A DNA stretch of 40,847 nt, taken from contig CAZLFE010000005.1 in assembly GCA_964558725.1 (NCBI GenBank), forward strand, positions 1 to 40,847. The letters run 5' to 3'. Below the pieces are notes generated by a model. That model was not told the DNA's origin, made no database searches, and was given only the letters and a program-made list of their open reading frames with translations. How positions within the stretch are numbered: position 1 is the first letter of the stretch; every line of letters begins with the position of its first letter. The translations under genes were made by a program, and so were the position numbers. This document shows positions 5,117-38,578 of the stretch, piece after piece. Source of the stretch: an uncultured Nitrospiraceae bacterium. GTDB lineage: Bacteria > Nitrospirota > Thermodesulfovibrionia > Thermodesulfovibrionales > SM23-35.

Positions 5117-6528
5117 TCCTTACTCCTTAACCTCTGGAGTATCTCATCGCCTATCTTCCATACATCTCCTGCACCAAGGGTCAGGAGCATATCACCTTTC
5201 TGCATATAGGCGATGACATGTTTTATTGCTTCTTCCTTGTCTTTCATATACAAGGTATTGTTATAACCTCTCTTTTTGATTCTCTCGAAAAGGGTTGCTG
5301 AGCTTATGCCCTCTATCGGTCTCTCCCCTGCAGAATAAATATCAAGAAGGATGAGAAAATCTGCATCATTGAAGGAGGCGGCAAACTCATCCATCAGGTC
5401 TTTTGTCCTTGTATATCTGTGAGGCTGGAAAAGGACAAACAACCTTCCCGCTTCCTGAATTCTGAATTCTGAATTCTGACTGCTGATAAAGAGTCCTTCC
5501 TTAGCTGCCTTCAAGATTGCTTTTATCTCGGTAGGGTGGTGCCCATAATCGTCAAATACTTTTATCTCCTTCGCCTCACCCTTAAACTCGAACCTCCTCT
5601 GTATGCCCCCAAACCTCCTCAGAGCCTCCTTTATGGTTGGTATATCTATCTGGAGTTCTAAGGCAACTCCAATAGCAGCCAGGCTGTTCAGCACGTTATG
5701 CTCTCCTGACAGGGGAAGATCGAAATAACCGATGTCCCTGCCTTTATAGGTTGCTTCAAAGCCGACGGACATGAAACCTTTTCTGATATTTTTTGCATAG
5801 ATTTCTGCTTCACTATGAAATCCATAGGTGATATATCTTCTGTGAAGAGATGGGAGAAGCTCACGCAGATGCTCGTTCTCAATACAAACAATTGATACAC
5901 CGTAAAAGGGAATTTTATCCAGGAAAGAGCGAAAGGCGTCTTTCAAGGAATCCAGTGACCGGAAGAAATCCATATGTTCCCTGTCTATGTTTGTTGCAAC
6001 TGCTATTGTTGGAGAGAGTTTCAGAAATGAACCATCGCTTTCATCAGCCTCGGCAACAAGGAATTCTCCCTGACCAAGTCGTGCATTACTGCCTGTTGCT
6101 TTTAATCTTCCCCCTATGATAACTGTAGGGTCAAAACCAGCATGAGCAAGAATAGTTGATATCAAGGATGTTGTTGTCGTTTTTCCATGTGCCCCTGAAA
6201 CGAGTATCCCGTATTTCAGTCTTGCAATCTCTGCAAGCATTTCTGCGCGAGGTATTACGGGGGTAAACCTTCTCTTTGCCTCAACGATTTCAGGGTTATT
6301 GTCTGAAACTGCCGAGGAAACAACAACGACATGGGCATCGTCTATGTTTTCCGCTTCATGACCGATATAGACCTTTATACCCAAGCCCTTCAACCTTCTC
6401 GTTGTCTCTGAATCCTTTACGTCAGACCCCGTAACCTCGCAGCCGAGGTTATGAAGTACCTCTGCAATACCTGACATCCCGATACCGCCTATCCCGACAA
6501 AATGTATTACCCTGTAGCACTCAAACAC
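5113..6528 (-). CDS. murC: UDP-N-acetylmuramate--L-alanine ligase
   Basis: Mur ligase P-loop GAHGKTTTTS. N-terminal FVGIGGIGMSGIA. DDYGHHPTE and FQPHRYTRT blocks. Confidence 0.95.
   Translation of the reverse strand: MFECYRVIHFVGIGGIGMSGIAEVLHNLGCEVTGSDVKDSETTRRLKGLGIKVYIGHEAENIDDAHVVVVSSAVSDNNPEIVEAKRRFTPVIPRAEMLAEIARLKYGILVSGAHGKTTTTSLISTILAHAGFDPTVIIGGRLKATGSNARLGQGEFLVAEADESDGSFLKLSPTIAVATNIDREHMDFFRSLDSLKDAFRSFLDKIPFYGVSIVCIENEHLRELLPSLHRRYITYGFHSEAEIYAKNIRKGFMSVGFEATYKGRDIGYFDLPLSGEHNVLNSLAAIGVALELQIDIPTIKEALRRFGGIQRRFEFKGEAKEIKVFDDYGHHPTEIKAILKAAKEGLFISSQNSEFRIQEAGRLFVLFQPHRYTRTKDLMDEFAASFNDADFLILLDIYSAGERPIEGISSATLFERIKKRGYNNTLYMKDKEEAIKHVIAYMQKGDMLLTLGAGDVWKIGDEILQRLRSKE
5456..5479. 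repeat. tandem heptamer TGAATTC x3.4 inside murC, in frame
   Basis: tgaattc tgaattc tgaattc tga, read directly from the sequence. On the coding strand this is CAGAATT x3, encoding part of SSQNSEFRIQEA. Confidence 0.9.
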
Positions 6529-6572
6529 GATAATCTCCTGAATCGGTGCTGGATTCTATATTTTGTATGCTT

Positions 6573-6607
6573 ACTCATCATTCGTGACTTGTCACTCTTC
6601 ACTGTTT
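6573..6607. repeat. period-7 array (ACTNNTC-like x5) spanning the murC-murG gap and the murG stop
   Basis: actcatc attcgtg acttgtc actcttc actgttt. The reverse complement belongs to the same GAGTGAC/GATGAGT word family seen in ftsW and murD. Confidence 0.75.
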
Positions 6608-7696
6608 TTTAAGAAGGTTCATTGCGATATCGACTACCTTAGCACATGCCTCAGGTCTTCCGAGCGCCCTGCTATTTTTTTGCATCTCGGCCCTGATTGT
6701 CTCGTTTTCATAAAGCTCTCTTACGGTGTGGGCAAGGGATTCGCCATTTAGTTTACTGTCAAGGATCATCCTCGCTGCGCCCATCTCGAAGAGTTTCCTC
6801 GAGTTCAATTCTTGATGGTGTCCGGCTGCATGAGGGTAGGGGATTAAAACGGCTGGTTTTCCGAGAGCTGTCAATTCAGCAAGAGTTGTTGCCCCTGCTC
6901 TTGAGATTACGATGTCAGAGACAGCATATGCCTCCCCCATCTGATATATGAAGGGAGTGACTGTTCCTTTGAAACCGAGCTCCCTGTAAGCATTCCTGAT
7001 ATGTTCATAATCCTTCGTGCCTGTCTGGTGAAGGAACTGAATTTTGTCTTTTACATCATGCAAGTAATTAAGAGAATCTACAATCGCTGTATTAATGCTT
7101 CTTGCTCCCAGACTTCCTCCAAAGACAAAGACAGTAAATAAACTTTCTTCGAGAGAAAAGAGCCTATATCCAGATTCTCTGCTGCCCTTGAGGATATGCA
7201 TCCTGACAGGGTTACCGGTAAGGAAGGTCTTTTCTTTTGGGAAGAAGGGGATACTCTCCTGATAGGTTGTGCAGATGGCTCTTACAAATTTCCCGAGGAT
7301 CTTATTCGTAAATCCTGGGATACAATTCTGTTCAAGGATCATGGTTGGTATTGACATGAGAGATGCGATAAGCATAATTGCTCCTGATGCATAACCACCG
7401 ACACCTATCATGATATCGGGCTGCACATTCTTAATAATTTTATGGGAATCCAAAAATGAGAGAAACATCTTGGCTATCGCCTTAATCATTTTTGGAACAG
7501 ATACTCCTACCATTCCTTCTGCCCGTATAAACTTTATTGGATATCCTTCCATCGGTACAACCCTGGCTTCTATACCGTGTTCTGTTCCAACAAATATCAC
7601 TTCTGTCATCTCATTTCTTCTCCTGAGTTCTTCAGCTATTGCAAGTCCTGGAAAGAGATGTCCTCCTGTACCTCCCCCCGCAATGATCACCCTCAT
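6599..7696 (-). CDS. murG: UDP-N-acetylglucosamine--N-acetylmuramyl-(pentapeptide) pyrophosphoryl-undecaprenol GlcNAc transferase
   Basis: N-terminal IAGGGTGGHLFP. GT28 C-terminal block SRAGATTLAEL. dcw context. Confidence 0.95.
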   Translation of the reverse strand: MRVIIAGGGTGGHLFPGLAIAEELRRRNEMTEVIFVGTEHGIEARVVPMEGYPIKFIRAEGMVGVSVPKMIKAIAKMFLSFLDSHKIIKNVQPDIMIGVGGYASGAIMLIASLMSIPTMILEQNCIPGFTNKILGKFVRAICTTYQESIPFFPKEKTFLTGNPVRMHILKGSRESGYRLFSLEESLFTVFVFGGSLGARSINTAIVDSLNYLHDVKDKIQFLHQTGTKDYEHIRNAYRELGFKGTVTPFIYQMGEAYAVSDIVISRAGATTLAELTALGKPAVLIPYPHAAGHHQELNSRKLFEMGAARMILDSKLNGESLAHTVRELYENETIRAEMQKNSRALGRPEACAKVVDIAMNLLKKQ

Positions 7697-7738
7697 AAAA
7701 TGTTAAAGGTAAAATTTAAAATGAAAAATTCAAAATAA
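7697..7738. repeat. period-7 A-rich array (AAAANNN x6) in the murG-ftsW junction
   Basis: aaaatgt taaaggt aaaattt aaaatga aaaattc aaaataa, all in one unbroken 7-nt register. Confidence 0.7.
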
Positions 7739-9022
7739 AGGAATTCCATCATTGTTCATCTTTGCTTTTTCATTTCTCAAGCCATAAATGGCCCTTTTAG
7801 CCTTCCTTCTCACAAACATTTTTTGCTTTATATCTTCAATCTCTTTGTTCTCTTTTCCTCTCGATATATTAAGGAGTATTCCGATAGCAGCCAAGCTCAC
7901 AAGAAGAGATGAACCGCCATAACTGATAAAGGGCAGTGGTAAGCCCTTTGTAGGCACCAGACCTGTGGCAACAGCGAAGTTGATAAGAGCCTGTAGGGAT
8001 ATCATTAGTGAAAGTCCAACTGCCAGGTAGTAAGCAAATCTATCCCTTGTCTTATTCGCAATAGATATTCCTCTGATAAAAATGAGCAGAAAAAGGGCAA
8101 TTATTATTGAGACGCCGATAAAACCAAACTCTTCACCGATAATAGAAAAGATAAAATCCGTATGTGATTCTGGCAGGTAAGATAATTTCTGTTTTGATCC
8201 GCCGATACCAACACCTGTGATACCCCCGCTACCAAAGGCTATAAAAGATTGCACAAGCTGAAAACCACTGCCCTGAGGATCCTTCCAGGGGTCAAGAAAG
8301 GATGTAACTCTCCTGAGGCGGTAAGGTTCCATAATGAGTATGAATAGTACCGGCAGGGCAAGTAAAGAAAGGGAAAAAAGGTATCTCAGTCTTATTCCTG
8401 ATAGAAAGAGCATTGCGAGCGTGAGAAAGGATAGGCTCATAGCAGATCCGAAGTCTGGCTGCATAAGCATAATCGCCTGGAATCCTATCATGATAGAAAT
8501 GGGTTTTATGAAAGATGTAAAGCTTTCGGTTATATAGTCAGGTGATGACAAGTATCGCGCGAGGAATATGACCATGGAAAGCTTTACGAACTCTGATGGC
8601 TGGAAGGTTGAAGGCCAGAGTCTTATCCATCTCTTTGCGCCACCTGCATGGACACCGATGACGGGCAAGAAAACGAGTATTAAGAGCACGAAAGAGAAAA
8701 TCAGGAGGGGCACAGCTATCTTCTTGAGAAAAGAAGGTTTCAAGTTGTAGGCAAGAAACATAAACCCTACCCCTATGAGGATTGTAAACATATGTCTCTT
8801 GAAGTAATAAAATTCGTTAACACCTTTTTTTGCAAGGGTAGGTATGATGACAGAGGTTGAACTGTATATCATGAGAGCGCCAAAGACGACGAGAACAAGC
8901 GTGGCAAGGAGAAGCAATTTGTCGTAAGTAAGGTACAGTGAAGAGTGACGGTTAACGGATGACGAGTTTCGTTCAGAAAACCGAAAGGCTAACTGCGTCT
9001 TACTCATTGTTTTGTCCATCAT
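7730..9022 (-). CDS. ftsW: SEDS-family peptidoglycan polymerase / lipid II flippase FtsW
   Basis: Polytopic membrane protein with SEDS blocks (PSEFVKL, QPDFGS, LPESHTDFIFS, PFISYGGSS). Located between murD and murG. Has N- and C-terminal extensions. Confidence 0.9.
   Translation of the reverse strand: MMDKTMSKTQLAFRFSERNSSSVNRHSSLYLTYDKLLLLATLVLVVFGALMIYSSTSVIIPTLAKKGVNEFYYFKRHMFTILIGVGFMFLAYNLKPSFLKKIAVPLLIFSFVLLILVFLPVIGVHAGGAKRWIRLWPSTFQPSEFVKLSMVIFLARYLSSPDYITESFTSFIKPISIMIGFQAIMLMQPDFGSAMSLSFLTLAMLFLSGIRLRYLFSLSLLALPVLFILIMEPYRLRRVTSFLDPWKDPQGSGFQLVQSFIAFGSGGITGVGIGGSKQKLSYLPESHTDFIFSIIGEEFGFIGVSIIIALFLLIFIRGISIANKTRDRFAYYLAVGLSLMISLQALINFAVATGLVPTKGLPLPFISYGGSSLLVSLAAIGILLNISRGKENKEIEDIKQKMFVRRKAKRAIYGLRNEKAKMNNDGIPLF
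8937..8971. repeat. period-7 array (xGTGACG-like x5) inside the ftsW N-terminal extension
   Basis: agtgaag agtgacg gttaacg gatgacg agtttcg, followed by a small hairpin TTTCG..CGAAA. Encodes NSSSVNRHSSL. Confidence 0.75.
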
Positions 9023-10503
9023 GCCAGCTCCATAACAATCTTTTTGAATTGCCTTCCCCTGTCTTCAAAATCCATAAACATATCAAAACTGGCACATGCA
9101 GGAGAGAGGAGGACAACATCACCTTTAACTGCTATACTCCGTGATATAAGTACAGCCTCTTCCATGTCTTTAGCCATAGCTGTTTCAGTAAGGTCTCCGA
9201 GAGACTTTTTTATCTTCTCACGAGCTTCACCAATAAGAACAATGGCCTTTACCCTCTCTTTTACTAAATTCCTCAAGGGTGAAAAATCTCCTGCCTTATC
9301 TCTGCCCCCTGCAATCAGGATGATAGGCTCATTAAAGCTCTCGAGGGACTTTACTACGGCGCCTACGTTTGTCCCCTTTGAATCATTAACATACCTGACA
9401 CCATCTTTTTCTCTCACAAATTCGAGCCTGTGCTCTAAACCAGGAAATTCTCTCAGGGAATCCTTTATTGACTCTAAGGAGCTACCTGCAAGGAGAGCCA
9501 TGGCCGAGGCGGCCATGGCATTCTCCAGGTTATGGACTCCCTTGATCTTTATCTCGTCGGCATGTATGAGTAATGAGTGATGAGTGACGAGTGACATGCC
9601 AGGAAAATTACAATAGATTCTTCCATCTTTAAAATAGATACCCTCAACCTCTTTCTTCCGGCTGAAGTAAAAAATGCCCGGTTTTTCACGTTTACCCTTT
9701 ATCTGTTCTTTTGCAACTTTTACTGTTTCCGGGTCATCCGCATTGAGCAGCAGGAAATCTTCTCCCCTCTGGTTTTCGAATATTCTTGCCTTTGCCTCAG
9801 AGTACTCTTCGAGTGAATGGTACCTGTCAAGGTGGTCAGGTGTGATATTGAGTATCACAGCACCTTTGGGTCTGAAATCCTGTATCGATTCGAGTTGAAA
9901 GCTTGATACCTCAACAACGATATAGTCAATTCCGATGTCTGAACCGGCGACACGGCGAGTGGGAGAAACGGTGACTTCTCCGAGTCTCCGAGTCCCCGAG
10001 TCCCCGAGTCTTTTATAGATTTCCTCTGTCAGGGCATTCCCAATGTTCCCTCCGAGGATTGTCCTGAAACCACCCTTTCTGAGCATTGCATTCAGGAGGG
10101 TTGTTGTTGTGGATTTGCCATTTGTTCCTGTAACAGCGAGAAAGCTGGCCACTGACCCCTCGGAATCAAATCGTAATGCCTGGTTGCTGGCTATCTGGTA
10201 AGCAAGTTCGAGCTCCCCAATGATGGGAATCCCTTTTCCCTTTACCTTTGATAAGGGTAAAACACTGAGGGGAACCCCAGGGCTGATGACTATCATGTCA
10301 GCCGATATGAATAAGTCTTCGGGATGACTCCCCAGAGAAAGCCTGATCGAAGGTTTGAGCTTTTCTCTAAAATCTGTAAGCTCCTCTTCTGGTTTTCTGT
10401 CTGTTACCGTCACATCTGCACCAAGTTCAGAAAGCAGATTTGCTGCCCCTATGCCGCTTCTGCCAAGGCCTACAACTGTAATTTTCTTACCCTGTATTTC
10501 CAT
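9019..10503 (-). CDS. murD: UDP-N-acetylmuramoylalanine--D-glutamate ligase
   Basis: N-terminal VVGLGRSGIGAA. P-loop GTNGKSTTT. Also SSFQLE, NDSKGTN and LLSPACASFD blocks. Confidence 0.95.
   Translation of the reverse strand: MEIQGKKITVVGLGRSGIGAANLLSELGADVTVTDRKPEEELTDFREKLKPSIRLSLGSHPEDLFISADMIVISPGVPLSVLPLSKVKGKGIPIIGELELAYQIASNQALRFDSEGSVASFLAVTGTNGKSTTTTLLNAMLRKGGFRTILGGNIGNALTEEIYKRLGDSGTRRLGEVTVSPTRRVAGSDIGIDYIVVEVSSFQLESIQDFRPKGAVILNITPDHLDRYHSLEEYSEAKARIFENQRGEDFLLLNADDPETVKVAKEQIKGKREKPGIFYFSRKKEVEGIYFKDGRIYCNFPGMSLVTHHSLLIHADEIKIKGVHNLENAMAASAMALLAGSSLESIKDSLREFPGLEHRLEFVREKDGVRYVNDSKGTNVGAVVKSLESFNEPIILIAGGRDKAGDFSPLRNLVKERVKAIVLIGEAREKIKKSLGDLTETAMAKDMEEAVLISRSIAVKGDVVLLSPACASFDMFMDFEDRGRQFKKIVMELA
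9566..9595. repeat. period-7 array ATGAGTR x4 inside murD, in frame
   Basis: atgagta atgagtg atgagtg acgagtg ac. Encodes SLVTHHSLLIH on the minus strand. Confidence 0.85.
9980..10011. repeat. tandem octamer CCGAGTCY x4 inside murD, in frame
   Basis: ccgagtct ccgagtcc ccgagtcc ccgagtct. An adjacent inverted repeat GGAGAA(9962-9967)/TTCTCC(9976-9981) is present. The whole segment encodes LGDSGTRRLGEVTVSPTRR. Confidence 0.9.
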
Positions 10504-11593
10504 TTATGCTTTTCTCTAAGACTCTATAATCTTTTCCTTTTTTACTCTTTGCAAGGGTTTTTGTCTTACTCCTTTTCTTTGCAAAGGTCTTTGTTTCCCC
10601 CTTTTTCTTTGCAAATACTTTCTTTTTCTTTAACGCTGAAGTTTTATGGCCGAACTTTGAACTCTTCTTATAGGTTGCTTTTCTCACGTCGAGTGAATCG
10701 TAATCTGCCTTTGTAAAATAGACAACAGGTTCTTCTTTGTAAGTTAAAATATTAAATCCCTTGTCAATGAGAATCTCTGTCTCTTTCCAGAGGTTTACCC
10801 TGCTTGGGTTCCCGAGAAGGGCAACGATCACAGTATCCTTCTCACGTTCAGCAGCACATACAAAACAATGCCTTGCCTCACGTGTGTAGCCGGTCTTGCC
10901 TCCTATAAGGTCTTCATCGGACCATAAAAGCCTGTTTATATTCCTGAGATACAGGTCGTTTCCATTTCCCCTCGAGACTTCTGCTACACGAGTTCCTATT
11001 ATTTCTTTCAGTTTTGGGTATCTCAGGGCATACCGCATCATTATTGACAAATCAAAGGTAGTCGTATATTGATTCGGGCCAGGAAGCCCATGGGGGTTTA
11101 TAAATTTAGTATCCGTTAATCCTATAGCTTCTGCTTTTCTGTTCATGAGATAAACGAACATTTCCTCAGAACCAGCCACAGCTTCTGCAAGAGCAACAGC
11201 AGCGTCATTTGCAGACTTCATGAGTGCAGCATAGAGAAGTGTTTCAATAGTTACTTCATCCCCTTCTTTGAACCCTGCCTTTAAAGGAGCAACAAGAGAG
11301 GCATTTTTACTTATCTTTACAACCTCTGAAAGGTTTTTCTCTTCTATGGCTATAATTGCTGTCATCAGCTTTGTTGTACTTGCAGGAGGAAGCCTGAGAT
11401 TTGGATTCTTTGCATAAAGGATCCTTCCTGTTGATGCTTCCATCACAGCGGTTGACCGGGAATTAACCTCATAAGCATTTACAGCAGTGACACGTAACAA
11501 GGTACAAGTAACAAGTAAAACAAAAATAAGAAATAAAAAATATCTTGTATTAACTTTAAACTTTAAACTTTTAACTTGTAACTGTTTTTCCAT
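10487..11593 (-). CDS. D-alanyl-D-alanine carboxypeptidase (peptidase S11, PBP5/6-like) with a Lys-rich C-terminal tail
   Basis: SxxK (ASTTK), SxN (SAND) and KTG (KTGYT) motifs. N-terminal signal/anchor sequence. The C-terminal ~60 residues are Lys-rich degenerate repeats. Confidence 0.9.
   Translation of the reverse strand: MEKQLQVKSLKFKVNTRYFLFLIFVLLVTCTLLRVTAVNAYEVNSRSTAVMEASTGRILYAKNPNLRLPPASTTKLMTAIIAIEEKNLSEVVKISKNASLVAPLKAGFKEGDEVTIETLLYAALMKSANDAAVALAEAVAGSEEMFVYLMNRKAEAIGLTDTKFINPHGLPGPNQYTTTFDLSIMMRYALRYPKLKEIIGTRVAEVSRGNGNDLYLRNINRLLWSDEDLIGGKTGYTREARHCFVCAAEREKDTVIVALLGNPSRVNLWKETEILIDKGFNILTYKEEPVVYFTKADYDSLDVRKATYKKSSKFGHKTSALKKKKVFAKKKGETKTFAKKRSKTKTLAKSKKGKDYRVLEKSINGNTG
10541..10630. 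repeat. three tandem 30-nt repeats encoding the Lys-rich tail (K-x-F/L-A-K-K)
   Basis: CTTTGCAA recurs at 10547, 10577 and 10607, an exact 30-nt period. Translated as KKVFAKKKGETKTFAKKRSKTKTLAKSKK. Confidence 0.8.
11494..11584. repeat. 13 consecutive heptamers in one register covering the carboxypeptidase signal-peptide codons
   Basis: gtaacaa ggtacaa gtaacaa gtaaaac aaaaata agaaata aaaaata tcttgta ttaactt taaactt taaactt ttaactt gtaactg. The two halves are roughly inverted (ACAAGT ... ACTTGT). Confidence 0.85.
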
Positions 11594-11594
11594 A

Positions 11595-12677
11595 TCACCT
11601 CACCTTTAATGTTGCCAGGCTTAATAAAGCCAGCATCATTCCTATTATCCAGAACCTCACGATGACTTTTGGTTCAGGCCACCCTTTTAATTCAAAGTGG
11701 TGATGGATGGGGGCCATCTTAAACACCCTTTTACCCGTGAGCTTAAAGGATAGTACCTGCAGTATGACAGAGATTGTTTCTATAACAAAGATTCCCCCTA
11801 CTACTGCAAGGACTATCTCATGCTTTGTAATGACGGCCAGGGTACCGAGGGAACCCCCGAGCCCGAGAGATCCCACATCGCCCATAAAGATATCAGCTGG
11901 ATAAGAGTTATACCAGAGAAACCCAAGAGAAGCTCCAAATATGGCCCCGCAGAAAACGGTTAATTCTCCAGTGCCAGGGAGATAGAGGACCTGGAGGTAC
12001 TGGGCTAATCCCTTATGTCCTGATATGTAAACGAGTACACCAGTAGCAAGGACGGCAATAGCAACAAGACCTATTGCAAGCCCATCTATACCATCTGTAA
12101 GGTTAACTGCATTGGATGAGCCTACAATGACAATTGCTGAAAATGGTATATAAAACCAGCTGAGGTCAAAGAGCCATTTCTTAAAGAAGGGAACGATCAG
12201 AATATCTGCATAAGGGTCCTTTGGATTTACGTAGAGAAAGAAACCGATTAAGAGGGCAAGGACTATCTGGTTGCTAAACTTGGAAAAAACTCGGAGACCT
12301 TTGTGATTTTTCCTTGTGACCTTAAGATAATCGTCGAGAAAGCCGATGAATCCAAACCCTGCAAGGGAGATAATCATGATCCAGACATACATATTTTTCA
12401 GGTCTCCCCACAGAAAAACCGAAAGAAGTATGCAGACAATGATGAGGACTCCGCCCATCGTAGGAGTGCCTGCCTTGTTGATATGTGTCTTTGGACCATC
12501 ATCCCGAATTTGCTGGGTCATACTTAATCTCTTCAATCTTCCTATAATCCACGGACCCAATATGAGAGAAAACAACAGTGCTGTAAGCACAGCAAGGGAG
12601 GTTCTGAAGGTAATGTACCTGAAGACATTGAGAGGCGAGAACCAGTCATGTAAATTGTATAAAAGGCTATATAACAT
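11595..12677 (-). CDS. mraY: phospho-N-acetylmuramoyl-pentapeptide transferase
   Basis: Polytopic protein with MraY blocks (KAGTPTMGG, NAVNLTDGIDGLA, HHHFE). Confidence 0.96.
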   Translation of the reverse strand: MLYSLLYNLHDWFSPLNVFRYITFRTSLAVLTALLFSLILGPWIIGRLKRLSMTQQIRDDGPKTHINKAGTPTMGGVLIIVCILLSVFLWGDLKNMYVWIMIISLAGFGFIGFLDDYLKVTRKNHKGLRVFSKFSNQIVLALLIGFFLYVNPKDPYADILIVPFFKKWLFDLSWFYIPFSAIVIVGSSNAVNLTDGIDGLAIGLVAIAVLATGVLVYISGHKGLAQYLQVLYLPGTGELTVFCGAIFGASLGFLWYNSYPADIFMGDVGSLGLGGSLGTLAVITKHEIVLAVVGGIFVIETISVILQVLSFKLTGKRVFKMAPIHHHFELKGWPEPKVIVRFWIIGMMLALLSLATLKVR

Positions 12678-12678
12678 C

Positions 12679-14040
12679 TTATGCCTCCAGAACCCTTTCC
12701 ATATTCATACCCCTTGAACCCTTTATGAGAAGAGTATCACCTTCTCTGCAGATACCCTTAATCTTTTCCCTTGCCTCGATAGAATTCTGAAATGTGAAGA
12801 CCGTTCCTGAAAATTCCGATGCTGCGGCGGACATCAAAGGTCCTATTGCCACAAAGATGTCAATCGGAAGTTCTGACATCCACCTGACAAGTGTCCTGTG
12901 GGCCTCATCTCCATAATGACCGAGTTCAAGCATATCACCCAAGACAGCAATAGCCCTTTTCTTCCTGAGCCTGACAAGCTCTTTAAGAGCCTCTTCCATA
13001 GAAGCCGGGTTTGCGTTATACACATCACTGATGACATGAATGCCCTCAAGTTCTTTTATCTCAAATCTCATTGGTATGCTGACAAAAGAATCTATCACAT
13101 TTTTTATATTCCGTAGTTCAATATGAAAGATATGGCCGACGGAGACGGCCGCGAGGAGATTATAAATATTAAATCTTCCTGATATTTTCGGATGGACTTC
13201 TATAGATGTGTTTTTGCCGATGTGTAAAAGAAAGGTAGAACCCTTTTCATGGAGTCTGATATCCGTTGCATAGATTTCGGCATCATTGTTTATCCCGTAT
13301 CTAACTATCCTCCCTTTAAACCCTGAGGCCTGAATACCTTCCATCAAGAAAGAATCATCAGCGTTCACAACAGCCACACGAATATAATTCAGGATTTCAA
13401 GTTTCGTCCTCCTCAGGGTCTCCATATCTTTAAAACCCTCGAGGTGGGATGGACTGATATTCGTTAAAATACCATAGTCTGGCACTGCTATTTCGCATAA
13501 CTCCTCTATGTCACCTGGTGCACTTGCACCCATCTCCAGAACAACAGCCTCATCTTCTTCAGATATCCTTGTCAAAGTCAGAGGAAGTCCGATATGGTTA
13601 TTCAGATTACCTGCATTTTTCAGTACCCCGTATGTAGAGCTCAGGATCGATGCTATGAGTTCTTTTGTGGTTGTCTTGCCATTCGATCCTGTAACACCAA
13701 TAACAGGAATAGCTCTTTTCAAACGCATATAACGAGCTATCCTCTGAAGAGCCTTGAGTGTGTCCCCTACAGAGATGATGGTTTTCCCCTCTATCAGTTC
13801 TGCAGGAGGAAATTTTACAATAGCGCCGCTTCCTATCCTTAGCGCATCTTGAAGAAAATCATGTCCGTCAAATCTCTCGCCCCTCAGTGCAATGAATAAC
13901 TCTCCTTGTTGTATCGACCGTGAATCTATCGACATACCTGAAAAGGCATGAGAATTTCTCCATATAACCTTTCCATCTGTTGCTGCAATGATATCTTCGA
14001 TTTTCAAAACTCCTTTAATCTCATTCCTGAGCATCCACAA
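12679..14040 (-). CDS. murF: UDP-N-acetylmuramoyl-tripeptide--D-alanyl-D-alanine ligase
   Basis: Mur ligase P-loop GSNGKTTTKE. DSRSIQQGELFIAL N-terminal block. YNANPASM block. The start could instead be the internal ATG at 14034. Confidence 0.93.
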   Translation of the reverse strand: MWMLRNEIKGVLKIEDIIAATDGKVIWRNSHAFSGMSIDSRSIQQGELFIALRGERFDGHDFLQDALRIGSGAIVKFPPAELIEGKTIISVGDTLKALQRIARYMRLKRAIPVIGVTGSNGKTTTKELIASILSSTYGVLKNAGNLNNHIGLPLTLTRISEEDEAVVLEMGASAPGDIEELCEIAVPDYGILTNISPSHLEGFKDMETLRRTKLEILNYIRVAVVNADDSFLMEGIQASGFKGRIVRYGINNDAEIYATDIRLHEKGSTFLLHIGKNTSIEVHPKISGRFNIYNLLAAVSVGHIFHIELRNIKNVIDSFVSIPMRFEIKELEGIHVISDVYNANPASMEEALKELVRLRKKRAIAVLGDMLELGHYGDEAHRTLVRWMSELPIDIFVAIGPLMSAAASEFSGTVFTFQNSIEAREKIKGICREGDTLLIKGSRGMNMERVLEA

Positions 14041-15566
14041 TGCTCATTCCCTCCCTGATTCCTTAATTTATCTTTAATTGCTTCCTCAAGAATTTCTCTA
14101 TCATTGAATTGATACCGTGTGCCTTTGATTTCCTGGTAATCCTCATGTCCCTTGCCTGCTATAAGGATGATATCTCTATCACATGCGACATTTACTGCTT
14201 TTCTGATCGCTTCTCTTCTGTCGGGCTCTTTTATATAGTTTCTTCTTACTACTCCCGCTTCGATCTCCTTAATAATATCGGATGGTTCTTCAGATCTGGG
14301 ATTATCAGAAGTCAGGATAACAAGGTCACTAAGCCTCGTTGCCGCTGCACCCATCTTGGGCCTCTTACCACGGTCCCTGTCTCCCCCACATCCAAAGACA
14401 GTGATAATGCGAGGTGATGCTTGCATAATGCGTGATGAGTTTTTGACAAGTTCTCTTGCAGTACATATCAGCCTTTCAAGAGCATCCTCTGTATGGGCAT
14501 AATCGATAAGGCAGAGGAAGTTCTGACCAAGATCAAGCTTTTCGAACCTTCCCGTAACACTACCAGTCTTCCTTATGCCTTCAAGAATTATCTGCCACGG
14601 AACCCCCAGAGAGATTGATACGCCAGCTGCAGACATAATGTTGTATACATTGGGCAGACCCATGAGGGGAGATGAGACATCATAACTCCTGCCGCGGAAG
14701 GATATCCTAAACTTCAATCCCCCAGCGGATGGATTAATTTCCCTCGCGACGATATCTGCTCCATCCTCTATCCCGTACGTCAGTATCCTTTTGAGTTCTA
14801 AGTCTTGTCCGCCTGAGGCGGATCCAAGCTCTGATGTTAGTCTCTTTCCATAAGGGTCATCCATATTTATCACACAGGTTCCATCCTTGTCGAGAAGCTC
14901 CCTGAATAATCTCTCCTTTGCCCTGAAATAGTTTTCCATAGTTTTATGAAAGTCCAGATGGTCTCTCGTGAGATTCGTGAAAACCGCAACCTTAAAAACA
15001 GCCCCTTCTACCCTACGCTGTTCAAGGGCATGGGATGATACCTCTGAAATAACATGGGTGCAACCCGAGGAGATCATATCTTTTAACAGACCATGGAATT
15101 CCAGGGATTCAGGCGTTGTGAAAGGTGCAGGGTAGGCCCTGTCTTTTATCATGTAGTGTATCGTGCCGATCAGGCCAACTTCCTTTCCCCAGGACTCGAG
15201 TATGGACTTGAGGATATACGTTGTCGACGTCTTTCCGTTTGTACCAGTTATACCGATGAGGACAAGATTTTCTGATGGCATCCCATAAAAATTATGAGCG
15301 ATACAGGCAAGGGCTCTTCTGCTGTCTTTTACACGGATGTAAATCTCAACATCTTTCAGATCTCTCTCACCCACTACTGCAATTGCCCCTTTTTTGATCG
15401 CCTCTGGAATAAAATCATGTCCGTCATACCTCTCACCCTTTATCGCTACAAACAGAGAACCCTCTTTTACCTTCCGTGAATCATAAGCCACACCCGCGAT
15501 ATCTCTATCCGATGGCAGAGAGTTGTTTACAAAATCACAACCTTGTAAAAGTTCTTTCAAGATCAT
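14004..15566 (-). CDS. murE: UDP-N-acetylmuramoyl-L-alanyl-D-glutamate--2,6-diaminopimelate ligase
   Basis: P-loop GTNGKTSTT. Also DYAHTEDALE, FGCGGDRDRGKRP and DNPRSE blocks. Confidence 0.95.
   Translation of the reverse strand: MILKELLQGCDFVNNSLPSDRDIAGVAYDSRKVKEGSLFVAIKGERYDGHDFIPEAIKKGAIAVVGERDLKDVEIYIRVKDSRRALACIAHNFYGMPSENLVLIGITGTNGKTSTTYILKSILESWGKEVGLIGTIHYMIKDRAYPAPFTTPESLEFHGLLKDMISSGCTHVISEVSSHALEQRRVEGAVFKVAVFTNLTRDHLDFHKTMENYFRAKERLFRELLDKDGTCVINMDDPYGKRLTSELGSASGGQDLELKRILTYGIEDGADIVAREINPSAGGLKFRISFRGRSYDVSSPLMGLPNVYNIMSAAGVSISLGVPWQIILEGIRKTGSVTGRFEKLDLGQNFLCLIDYAHTEDALERLICTARELVKNSSRIMQASPRIITVFGCGGDRDRGKRPKMGAAATRLSDLVILTSDNPRSEEPSDIIKEIEAGVVRRNYIKEPDRREAIRKAVNVACDRDIILIAGKGHEDYQEIKGTRYQFNDREILEEAIKDKLRNQGGNEHCGCSGMRLKEF
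14404..14437. repeat. direct repeat ATAATGCG(AG)GTGATG x2 inside murE, in frame
   Basis: ataatgcgaggtgatg (14404-14419) and ataatgcgtgatg (14425-14437). Encodes SSRIMQASP immediately before the conserved VFGCGGDRD block. Confidence 0.7.
14804..14828. repeat. imperfect palindrome inside murE, in frame
   Basis: CTTG TCCGCC tga GGCGGA tc CAAG. Encodes part of GSASGGQDLE. Confidence 0.7.
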
Positions 15567-38318: not shown

Positions 38319-38578
38319 TTCCCGTATACGCCTTTTAAATCCATGTCTTGCATAGTTTACCATAACCAAAAAATGCCTCTAATATAAAGCCTTTTCTGCA
38401 ATTGGTAAGCATTTTTTGTGCTGAACAATCAGACTGATTAGCATTCAGAATCAGAACACAGATTACTTCGGTCGAAATGACCTCGTAATGACAACTAAAA
38501 ATTTTTTCTTTGCCTTATTCTTAAAAGTTTTACTTACTTTGTCTCCCCTGATGTGAGGAAAATCGGAGATGCTTCTAT

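Follow-up and report, generated by a model that had tools for sequence, protein, structure and literature searches.

Tandem heptamers in the dcw cluster

The window analysed here, a stretch of 40,847 nucleotides from an uncultured Nitrospiraceae bacterium (contig CAZLFE010000005.1 of assembly GCA_964558725.1), holds in its first 19 kb a complete division and cell wall (dcw) cluster on the minus strand, and several of the genes and spacers of that cluster contain short tandem arrays of heptamers or octamers. Where they lie in genes, such arrays are read in frame and add 7-24 residues to loops that are disordered, to linkers between domains, to N-terminal tails and to signal peptides. The genes run in the order mraZ, rsmH, ftsL, ftsI, murE, murF, mraY, a DD-carboxypeptidase gene, murD, ftsW, murG, murC, murB, ddl, ftsQ, ftsA and ftsZ, with murC, murG, ftsW, murD, mraY, murF and murE matching NCBIfam equivalogs above cut-off, all on the minus strand; the DD-carboxypeptidase gene, between mraY and murD, spans 10487-11593. 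The host genome (G000, of which the window is contig C5) is a 2.46-Mb metagenome-assembled genome (MAG) of 222 contigs and 41.8% G+C assigned to the Thermodesulfovibrionales, and its nearest MurC relatives (82-92% identity) come from MAGs with the label Thermodesulfovibrionales or Nitrospirota. For comparison, dcw clusters were taken from 20 relatives, which range from members of the same genus to more distant ones of the order and bear labels such as G001.

A sequence-only reading of the window had proposed at least seven coding sites at which tandem heptamers or octamers, or a palindrome, were inserted in frame into dcw genes, and had pointed to related words in three intergenic gaps. Arrays were called with Tandem Repeats Finder (TRF), and a lag-match scan, in which matches are scored out of 28 comparisons, provided a second test. 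The sites are as follows.

5455..5479, minus strand: murC; sense heptamer AATTCAG x3.6, 100% perfect (TRF); lag 7, 24/28
6573..6607, minus strand: murG-murC spacer; probably decayed AGTGAAG/AGTGACA/AGTCACG heptamers; lag 7, 18/28
7697..7738, minus strand: ftsW-murG spacer; AATTTTN x3.9, TRF period 7 at 7710-7736; lag 7, 21/28
8937..8971, minus strand: ftsW N-terminal tail; probably decayed heptamers of xACTCGT/CACTCTT type; lag 7, 18/28
9566..9594, minus strand: murD site 2; CACTCRT x4.1 (TRF, period 7); lag 7, 22/28
9940..10011, minus strand: murD site 1; octamer CTCGGRGA x4.4 at 9977-10011 (TRF), then a degenerate inverted arm; lag 8, 25/28
10144..10179, minus strand: murD residues 109-120; third loop insert, +12 aa
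11486..11583, minus strand: DD-carboxypeptidase leader; TRF period 7 at 11486-11518, 11522-11542 and 11550-11583; lag 7, 24/28
14404..14437, minus strand: murE inter-domain linker; +6 aa insert (gap against 8f5d); lag 7, 13/28
14804..14828, minus strand: murE loop; +9 aa insert (gap against 8f5d); 5-bp palindrome CCGCC-TCA-GGCGG

Five of these, in murC, at both murD sites, in the carboxypeptidase leader and in the ftsW-murG spacer, are certain, strong arrays, and those of the ftsW tail and the murG-murC spacer are probably decayed ones. The two murE sites are not repeats, as the lag-match scan found no significant periodicity at 14404-14437 and no signal at 14804-14828, which is a bare 5-bp palindrome; nor is 38444-38500, where the same scan gave no period-7 signal. 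The proposal of seven coding sites was thus borne out for murC, murD and the leader, and in decayed form for ftsW, but not for murE, while that of related intergenic words held strongly for the ftsW-murG spacer and in decayed form for the murG-murC spacer but failed at 38444-38500, where the copy present is of another small palindromic family. No repeat was detectable in the G000 insert at murD residues 109-120.

Comparisons with solved homologues agreed with the suggestion that the proteins are longer at these sites, between conserved blocks. Against 6cau, MurC has a 12-aa gap, i.e., +12 residues before the first strand of the C-terminal domain (RLFVLFQPH), and the array encodes SQNSEFRIQ within this loop insert. 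MurD, compared with 3lk7, is longer by about 24 residues at site 1, where the octamer array and the degenerate arm together form a disordered insert, by exactly 7 at site 2, where the array encodes SLVTHHSLL in a loop between two strands, and by 12 at residues 109-120; MurE is longer than 8f5d by 6 and 9 residues at its two named sites. In an AlphaFold model of MurD built on 20 relatives (mean predicted local distance difference test score, pLDDT, 80) all three inserts are coil, residues 110-116 and 169-189 score below 50, and site 2 corresponds to coil 300-309. The array inserts fall in coil loops of the Mur ligases, a question that the earlier reading had put to a mapping onto structures, and gene calls, homologue gaps and the MurD model all place the window's array inserts, translated in frame, at surface sites of conserved proteins. 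Although MurD site 2 is flanked (9559-9601) by a perfect 7-bp inverted repeat, GGCATGT...ACATGCC, this is found only in G000 and G003 and is probably due to chance.

The remaining arrays lie at the ends of proteins or before them. The ftsW array region encodes SSSVNRHSSLY in a cytoplasmic N-terminal tail that is common to the genus, and the heptamers of the ftsW-murG spacer end right at the murG ATG, where no Shine-Dalgarno motif is visible. The carboxypeptidase leader consists of AAGTTAA x4.9, which encodes a Lys-rich n-region, a T-rich run, and TGTTACT x4.7, which encodes the hydrophobic core. Its two arms are roughly inverted relative to each other and, because complementary arms encode opposite hydropathy, such inverted heptamer arms yield a Lys-rich n-region together with a Phe/Leu-rich core; they amount to a ready-made signal peptide. 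At the other end of the same protein (10546-10615) a Lys-rich tail is made of 2.3 copies of a 30-nt repeat.

A genome-wide and clade-wide class of repeats

The arrays of the window belong to a repeat class that is both genome-wide and clade-wide. At a TRF score of at least 40 the genome contains 102 period-7 and 42 period-8 arrays, as opposed to 0 and 2 in a fifth-order Markov genome, and the census for which the sequence-only reading had called thus placed heptamer arrays far above background. In the lag-match scan of the whole genome, 160 windows reached at least 20/28 at lag 7 and 56 did so at lag 8, versus 1-22 at the other lags from 4 to 13; at a threshold of 18/28 there are 275 at lag 7 versus about 40 at control lags, so that about 85% of such lag-7 windows are real. 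The 13.5-kb dcw stretch, with 3 arrays at a TRF score of at least 40 versus 0.55 expected from the genome mean, shows only a modest local excess. Based on crude ORF (open reading frame) calls (85% coding), 64 of the period-7 arrays lie wholly in ORFs, 25 are non-coding and 13 are at edges, i.e., about 63% are inside ORFs; octamer arrays are mostly non-coding (27 versus 7). The housekeeping proteins that bear arrays include PurL (3 arrays), chorismate synthase (2), TolB, PilQ, TamB, a CbiG/methylase fusion and a radical-SAM protein.

The units are many but form a loose family, with ACT/AGT in 62% of them versus 18% of random genomic heptamers, and GTCA/TGAC and GTGA/TCAC each in about 25% versus 4%. 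They share a core of AGT[CG]A type and are nearly devoid of trinucleotides containing CC or GG, even in the non-coding arrays. Of the 64 arrays within ORFs, 58 have a sense unit with no stop in any of the three frames and 14 an antisense unit of this kind, the value for a random heptamer being 0.65, and 15/32 non-coding arrays have stops on both strands. Because in-ORF units take the stop-free orientation, AGTCA occurs in sense but AGTGA only as TCACT, and the same orientation accounts for the recurrent peptides SLVTRHSSL, SQQSAVS and KFKVQSS. Identical words occur at unrelated loci, CACTCGT at 9 and CACTCAT at 7, with no shared flanks or target duplications. Two trivial sources of such arrays were considered and rejected: a loss of mismatch repair, as MutS, MutS2 and MutL are all present in the genome, and an assembly artefact, as the same arrays are found in MAGs obtained independently, in a genome that is a single contig and in contigs that other studies produced.

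In relatives the same sites are occupied repeatedly, but what they contain differs from genome to genome. At MurD site 1 there is an octamer array in G000 and G002, ACTCGTC x4 in G003, AGTTACR x5 plus ATCACTC x4 in G009, CACTTCT x3 in G015, AGTTAGC x4 in G012, and almost nothing in more distant genomes. Most family members have period-7 DNA of varied words and lengths at the MurC site, and distant members of the order have no insert there. The MurE linker has no repeat in G000 but contains heptamer arrays and a GC-rich palindromic element, read in frame, in relatives, and in the ftsW tail G012 has clean arrays of the ACTCGTC type at the place of the decayed array of the window. The carboxypeptidase signal peptide is built of arrays in most relatives, with an n-region of AAAGTTC or AGTCRTY type and an h-region of TTTTCAC x4-5. 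In line with what the sequence-only reading would require, then, the extra residues are not all shared by orthologues. Some homologues carry the peptide of the GC-rich palindrome at MurD residues 109-120.

Arrays in the dcw clusters number 16 in G015 and 11 in G012, and fall to 0 in several other families. Among insert segments of at least 7 aa in eight dcw proteins of 21 genomes, 7 was the best period in 30/85, as compared with 8% of windows in the conserved core. Of 301 genomes of the order, 60 have the exact array (CACTCRT)x3, with a patchy distribution among genera; the reversed control turned up in two genomes. Among about 100 genomes from outside the order but within the phylum, one has the array. 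A DNA search with the array-rich contig C28 in congeners showed that this region is not conserved, the matches being those of the dispersed GC-rich palindrome only.

MurD site 1 occurs among homologues as two allele classes, the octamer class and that of the SSLVTRHSSL type, which do not follow overall identity (homologues P0121-P0141): homologues at 89-92% carry the other class and those at 70-80% share that of G000. The pattern suggests recombination or an old polymorphism at the loop. In G002 murD there is also an in-frame TAG from a point change (aag to tag; locus L115), and purL of the same genome (L173) has several frameshifts and in-frame stops; this genome looks error-prone, and the murD and purL lesions may be sequencing errors.

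Changes by whole units and stability

The clearest view of how arrays change came from aroC, in which AGTCAGG is present in 2 copies in G003 and G004 and in 5 copies in G000 and G005 (+21 nt = +7 aa). The extra units are copies of the local unit, which argues for growth in place rather than the insertion of foreign DNA. In the MAG G001 (L181) there are 4 copies, out of frame, and the ORF is split exactly there. Among protein homologues drawn from a collection of 5.8 billion proteins, AroC at the level of the genus is solely 412 or 405 aa long, and since pairs at 97.8% and 95.6% identity differ by the 7-residue block, the change occurred at least twice recently. Over 120 homologues the AroC loop lengths form the series 22/29/36, 24/31/38 and 35/42/49, and those of the MurD segment at residues 103-123 run 18/25/32. 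In modulus tests only modulus 7 was in excess at AroC site 2 (0.186 versus 0.143) and at MurD residues 103-123 (0.208), in sequences that are not independent of one another; homologue lengths at MurD sites 1 and 2 showed no modulus-7 excess. Copy number thus differs by whole units among congeners, with the forms that persist differing by three units (21 nt = 7 aa).

The units of an array also evolve together. At MurD site 2 unit likeness is 0.74 within a genome and 0.60 between orthologues; at site 1 the variable position of the unit is G in all four copies of G003 and A in all four of G009; and the second AroC site, of constant length, has AAACTTC x3 in G001 where G000 has AAAGTTC x5. Such alignments indicate that the arrays undergo concerted evolution.

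On a shorter time scale the arrays were stable. Contigs of three other studies (groundwater at depth ~145, freshwater and soil) are about 98% identical to the window over 10 kb, and no coding array among them has an indel, in consensus contigs in which rare variants would be missed; the only indels seen were two small ones in the murG-murC spacer (6545, 6590) and one near the carboxypeptidase stop. The strain comparison for repeat number that the sequence-only reading had suggested therefore showed no change in coding arrays at this distance, unit steps being seen among congeners and homologues, as in aroC, and the arrays are stable across about 2% sequence divergence. Of 121 sequences (the query and 120 homologues), 86 agree in the length of MurD site 2, and its peptide is conserved in most; it is therefore an old insert.

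Origin of the arrays and their relation to known repeats

We consider it probable, with considerable room for doubt, that the sites are heptanucleotide (in one case octanucleotide) simple sequence repeat (SSR) arrays that evolve by slippage under a filter for frame and stops, with concerted evolution. Strand misalignment during replication or repair of heptamer or octamer quasi-repeats would cause arrays to grow, shrink and homogenise. E. coli MutS handles loops of up to about four bases, and loops of 7-8 nt could escape an intact MutS/MutL system here. Selection would then remove products that shift the frame, bring in stops or damage the structure, leaving net changes of three units, the stop-free orientation and permissive sites, and what remains would be neutral or nearly neutral length variation at such sites.

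The closest description for arrays of this kind is that of long SSRs with 5-11-nt units (LSSR5-11), among which, as the survey of Mrazek, Guo and Shah (2007) is summarised, heptanucleotides were the commonest and were ascribed to slippage, and the units found in genes were those with a length that is a multiple of three (PMC4679880, PMC4692102). The units of the window, head to tail with 3.6-4.9 copies at the five strong sites (TRF), fall within that 5-11-nt class. By those summaries, the two sets of repeats are alike in having tandem heptamers far above expectation, in a free-living bacterium, with many words, slippage as the proposed cause and no link to pathogenicity or switching; they differ in that most heptamer arrays here are intragenic, in essential genes, and come in quanta of three units.

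Several observations weigh against slippage as the whole explanation. A few words recur at unrelated loci and across the order, a recurrence that pure local slippage does not predict, and slippage alone does not explain the restricted word family. Coding arrays share their modal length of about 4.4 copies with non-coding ones, which is more readily explained by a burst or a cassette than by growth in steps; among perfect arrays the copy numbers are spread evenly from 3 to 5, a spectrum whose use in testing for bursts is confounded by decay. Simple slippage cannot add three units to a seed of one or two copies in one step, and out-of-frame intermediates would be lethal in murC or murD. The out-of-frame aroC of G001 does show that intermediates can exist, but it is a single MAG consensus and aroC may be dispensable in situ. 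The absence of any 7-nt polymorphism in the consensus contigs of the ~98% strains also counts against slippage. Lastly, neighbouring arrays of similar unit are inverted with respect to each other 14 times and direct twice, and four PF05635 genes are bracketed by such arrays, which hints at an element-borne origin for at least some arrays.

These last observations would suit a different explanation, in which small mobile hairpin elements with tandem 7-8-nt arms gave rise to the arrays as arms, half-arms or footprints. The full forms of such elements would carry a PF05635 gene, and the elements would insert at permissive sites, including in frame in ORFs, in the manner of Rickettsia palindromic elements (RPEs). 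Inverted pairs of like arrays with gaps of 11-82 nt are gene-less hairpins, and those with gaps of 228-444 nt carry a small gene. The PF05635 family, that of the 23S rRNA intervening sequence (IVS) proteins, has four members above cut-off in G000, and all of them are flanked by inverted repeats of 7- or 8-nt words, for which chance would account at about 2% per flank:

C12:24195-24735: PF05635 gene, flanked by tandem arrays
C97:855-1365: PF05635 gene, flanked by tandem arrays; the AAGAGC-type heptamers of one flank are matched by their complement in the other flank
C170:2753-3370: PF05635 gene, flanked by more loosely spaced GATAGAG words
C34:2-274: PF05635 gene, flanked by tandem arrays

In addition, small repeats of four different kinds occupy the same loops of PurL, MurE and MurD, depending on the congener. 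At two N-terminal loops of PurL, G000 has heptamers, G001, G003 and G004 have GC-rich palindromes, G005 has a hairpin with octamer arms and G002 has a third palindromic family, each of them inside the coding sequence. The inverted array pairs, the bracketed PF05635 genes and the contents of the PurL loops together mean that hairpin elements with tandem-repeat arms exist here and share permissive sites with the arrays. The recurrence of words at unrelated loci would suit such elements as well, as would the inverted arms at murD site 1 and in the carboxypeptidase leader, the only sites in the window with a second, degenerate arm. Yet about 85-90% of arrays are solo, murC and murD site 2 among them having no partner arm; the inserts of the window have no other copies in the genome (that of murD site 1 matches only itself); arrays of the same word share neither flanks nor target duplications; and the units added to aroC copy the local unit. 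Support from folding was weak for the imperfect hairpin of murD site 1 (z -2.1, with 3/200 shuffles as good), and an RNA hairpin of the carboxypeptidase leader was not significant (z -0.7). The number of PF05635 genes is likewise uncoupled from array load, with 26 exact word arrays and no PF05635 in G015 and 3-14 copies in array-free genomes. We therefore regard mobile hairpins as a possible but doubtful source of the window's arrays.

A direct role for PF05635 in generating arrays was rejected, as its copy number across 57 genomes of the taxonomic family shows no relation to whether the CACTCRT array is present, itself a poor proxy for all arrays. PF05635 genes occur in 50 of these 57 genomes, in up to 14 copies. 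The C170 copy sits between two tRNA-like sequences. RPEs are dispersed palindromic copies of 100-150 bp that belong to one family, and the inserts of the window resemble them as selfish-looking DNA read in frame at surface-exposed sites of housekeeping proteins. They differ in being tandem arrays of 21-72 nt with words specific to each site and no dispersed copies, so that the RPE-like behaviour proposed in the sequence-only reading does not apply to the window's own sites, where units differ from site to site, aroC units are local and hairpin support is weak or absent. For the clade the analogy is apt, since a GC-rich nested palindrome of about 45 nt (AATCCCCCC-tca-CCCCCCTTTAGTAAAGGGGGG-tga-GGGGGGATT) is a real RPE-like element. 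It is absent from the window, but has at least 55 copies in G000 (e.g., C28:10889-10926 and C3:18918-18946), 33 of them inside long ORFs with hosts that include PurL, a radical-SAM protein and a CbiG fusion; it reads ..PP.PPL.KGG.GG.. and is in frame in relatives' murE (L112, L116, L120), murD and purL (L169, L171). Intervening sequences of 23S rRNA, such as that of Coxiella burnetii, carry an S23p/PF05635 ORF (PMC4990558). The likeness to these lies in the inverted repeats that bracket the genome's PF05635 genes, which are tandem 7-8-mers of the same word family as the arrays; the cassettes here are outside rRNA, with none in the window, and the PF05635 count does not track array load.

That the arrays are kept by selection for a function in RNA or protein, e.g., through a heptad-reading RNA- or single-stranded DNA-binding protein that tunes translation, or as useful linkers and signal peptides, is improbable, even though 16/64 coding arrays lie in the first tenth of their ORF, the TTTTCAC h-region array of the carboxypeptidase does not differ between genomes from three genera, most homologues keep the peptide of MurD site 2, and the array directly before the murG ATG matches TAACTGA repeats of Beggiatoaceae (PMC4679880). 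Set against this are the free variation of words and lengths among close relatives at the same site, inserts that are disordered and that distant relatives lack altogether, the absence of significant RNA structure in the carboxypeptidase leader, and an orientation bias of non-coding arrays relative to downstream starts (9 ACT-sense versus 4 AGT-sense) that is weak and too small in number for inference. Contingency loci, i.e., fast and reversible frameshift switches for phase variation, are scarcely credible, for although a gain or loss of one unit always shifts the frame, as in the 4-copy aroC of G001, the genes are essential, single-copy and housekeeping, the arrays, at about 4 copies, are short, most homologues agree in the length of MurD site 2, and the coding arrays did not change in length among the ~98% identical strains (consensus contigs) and are therefore not on/off switches.

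Long SSRs of this class are related to heptamers of other phyla, the TAACTGA repeats. The TAACTGA repeats of Beggiatoaceae, cyanobacteria and some Bacteroidetes have an ACT/AGT core and 2-6 copies (MacGregor 2015, PMC4679880). One word dominates and about 85% of sets are intergenic, and some immediately precede a start codon that has no Shine-Dalgarno motif; the ten sets that lie in ORFs all take the orientation free of stops, and one of these is part of an RpoC-like protein's surface loop (PMC4679880). The arrays here share the heptamers with an ACT/AGT core, the stop-free orientation in ORFs and an array next to a start without a Shine-Dalgarno motif (murG), and the leader in one relative, G019, has the very word, but they employ dozens of words and are about 63% intragenic. 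Among the window's TRF units neither TAACTGA nor TCAGTTA occurs, the word having been seen only in the carboxypeptidase leader of G019. Short tandemly repeated repetitive (STRR) heptamers were reportedly described from cyanobacteria by Mazel in 1990, and Vioque is said to have found one within the gene for RNase P RNA in 1997. Their words include CCCCAGT, TTGGTCA and CAACAGT, and they are mainly intergenic sequences of heterocystous cyanobacteria. The comparison with STRRs drawn in the sequence-only reading is sound in kind, as tandem heptamers are over-represented genome-wide and read in frame in loops between conserved blocks, and as in both cases an essential gene accommodates them at a place that is variable and structurally permissive. 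In its specifics it does not hold, given that the words are different (units here lack CC/GG), the phylum is another, STRRs are mostly intergenic whereas most arrays here are intragenic, and an RNA gene is involved there and protein genes here.

A literature search for heptamer repeats in Nitrospirae or Thermodesulfovibrio found none, and the shared AGT[CG]A core was not described in the papers searched. What is new is thus the presence, in a phylum for which no description was found, of heptanucleotide SSRs that are mostly intragenic, lie in essential genes, change in 7-residue quanta, evolve in concert and share their sites with other small repeats. The usual view of essential conserved enzymes such as MurC, MurD, PurL and AroC is that new loops are rare in them and arise through codon-wise indels. 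In the clade's dcw proteins much of the variation in length comes from a process that acts on DNA and has a period not divisible by three (the 30/85 inserts above), and its signature of 7-residue quanta, recurrent peptides and stop-free unit orientation is recognisable. The arrays offer a concrete model of how signal peptides and disordered loops originate de novo, show by natural example where Mur ligases tolerate insertions, and pose the mechanistic puzzle of a gain of three units in an essential gene with no viable intermediate on the way. They also carry a warning for annotation, as frameshifts at such arrays in MAGs may be real. It is conceivable, if rather unlikely, that heptamer and octamer arrays, hairpins and PF05635 cassettes are all products of one sequence-biased repeat-generating or mobile system, common to several phyla (Nitrospirota, and in print cyanobacteria and Beggiatoaceae), that would continually rewrite loops, linkers and even signal peptides of essential proteins in 7-residue quanta. 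Such a system would constitute a general and undescribed engine of protein-length evolution, with the corollary that a Lys-rich n-region and a Phe/Leu-rich h-region follow naturally from what two complementary arms encode.

Two other small families were encountered along the way. At 38471-38492 the window has two tandem copies of GTCATTNCGAS, which belong to the third small palindromic family (GTCATTGCGAG...CGAAGCAATC), with 47 matches in the genome versus about 9 expected, mostly intergenic, and a full copy inside the purL coding sequence of G002. A non-coding octamer family (AAGGATTC / GGTTCAAG) of about 14 arrays forms inverted arm pairs (C40:336-428, C6:9923-10057, C2:26503-26541), one of which straddles a start codon.

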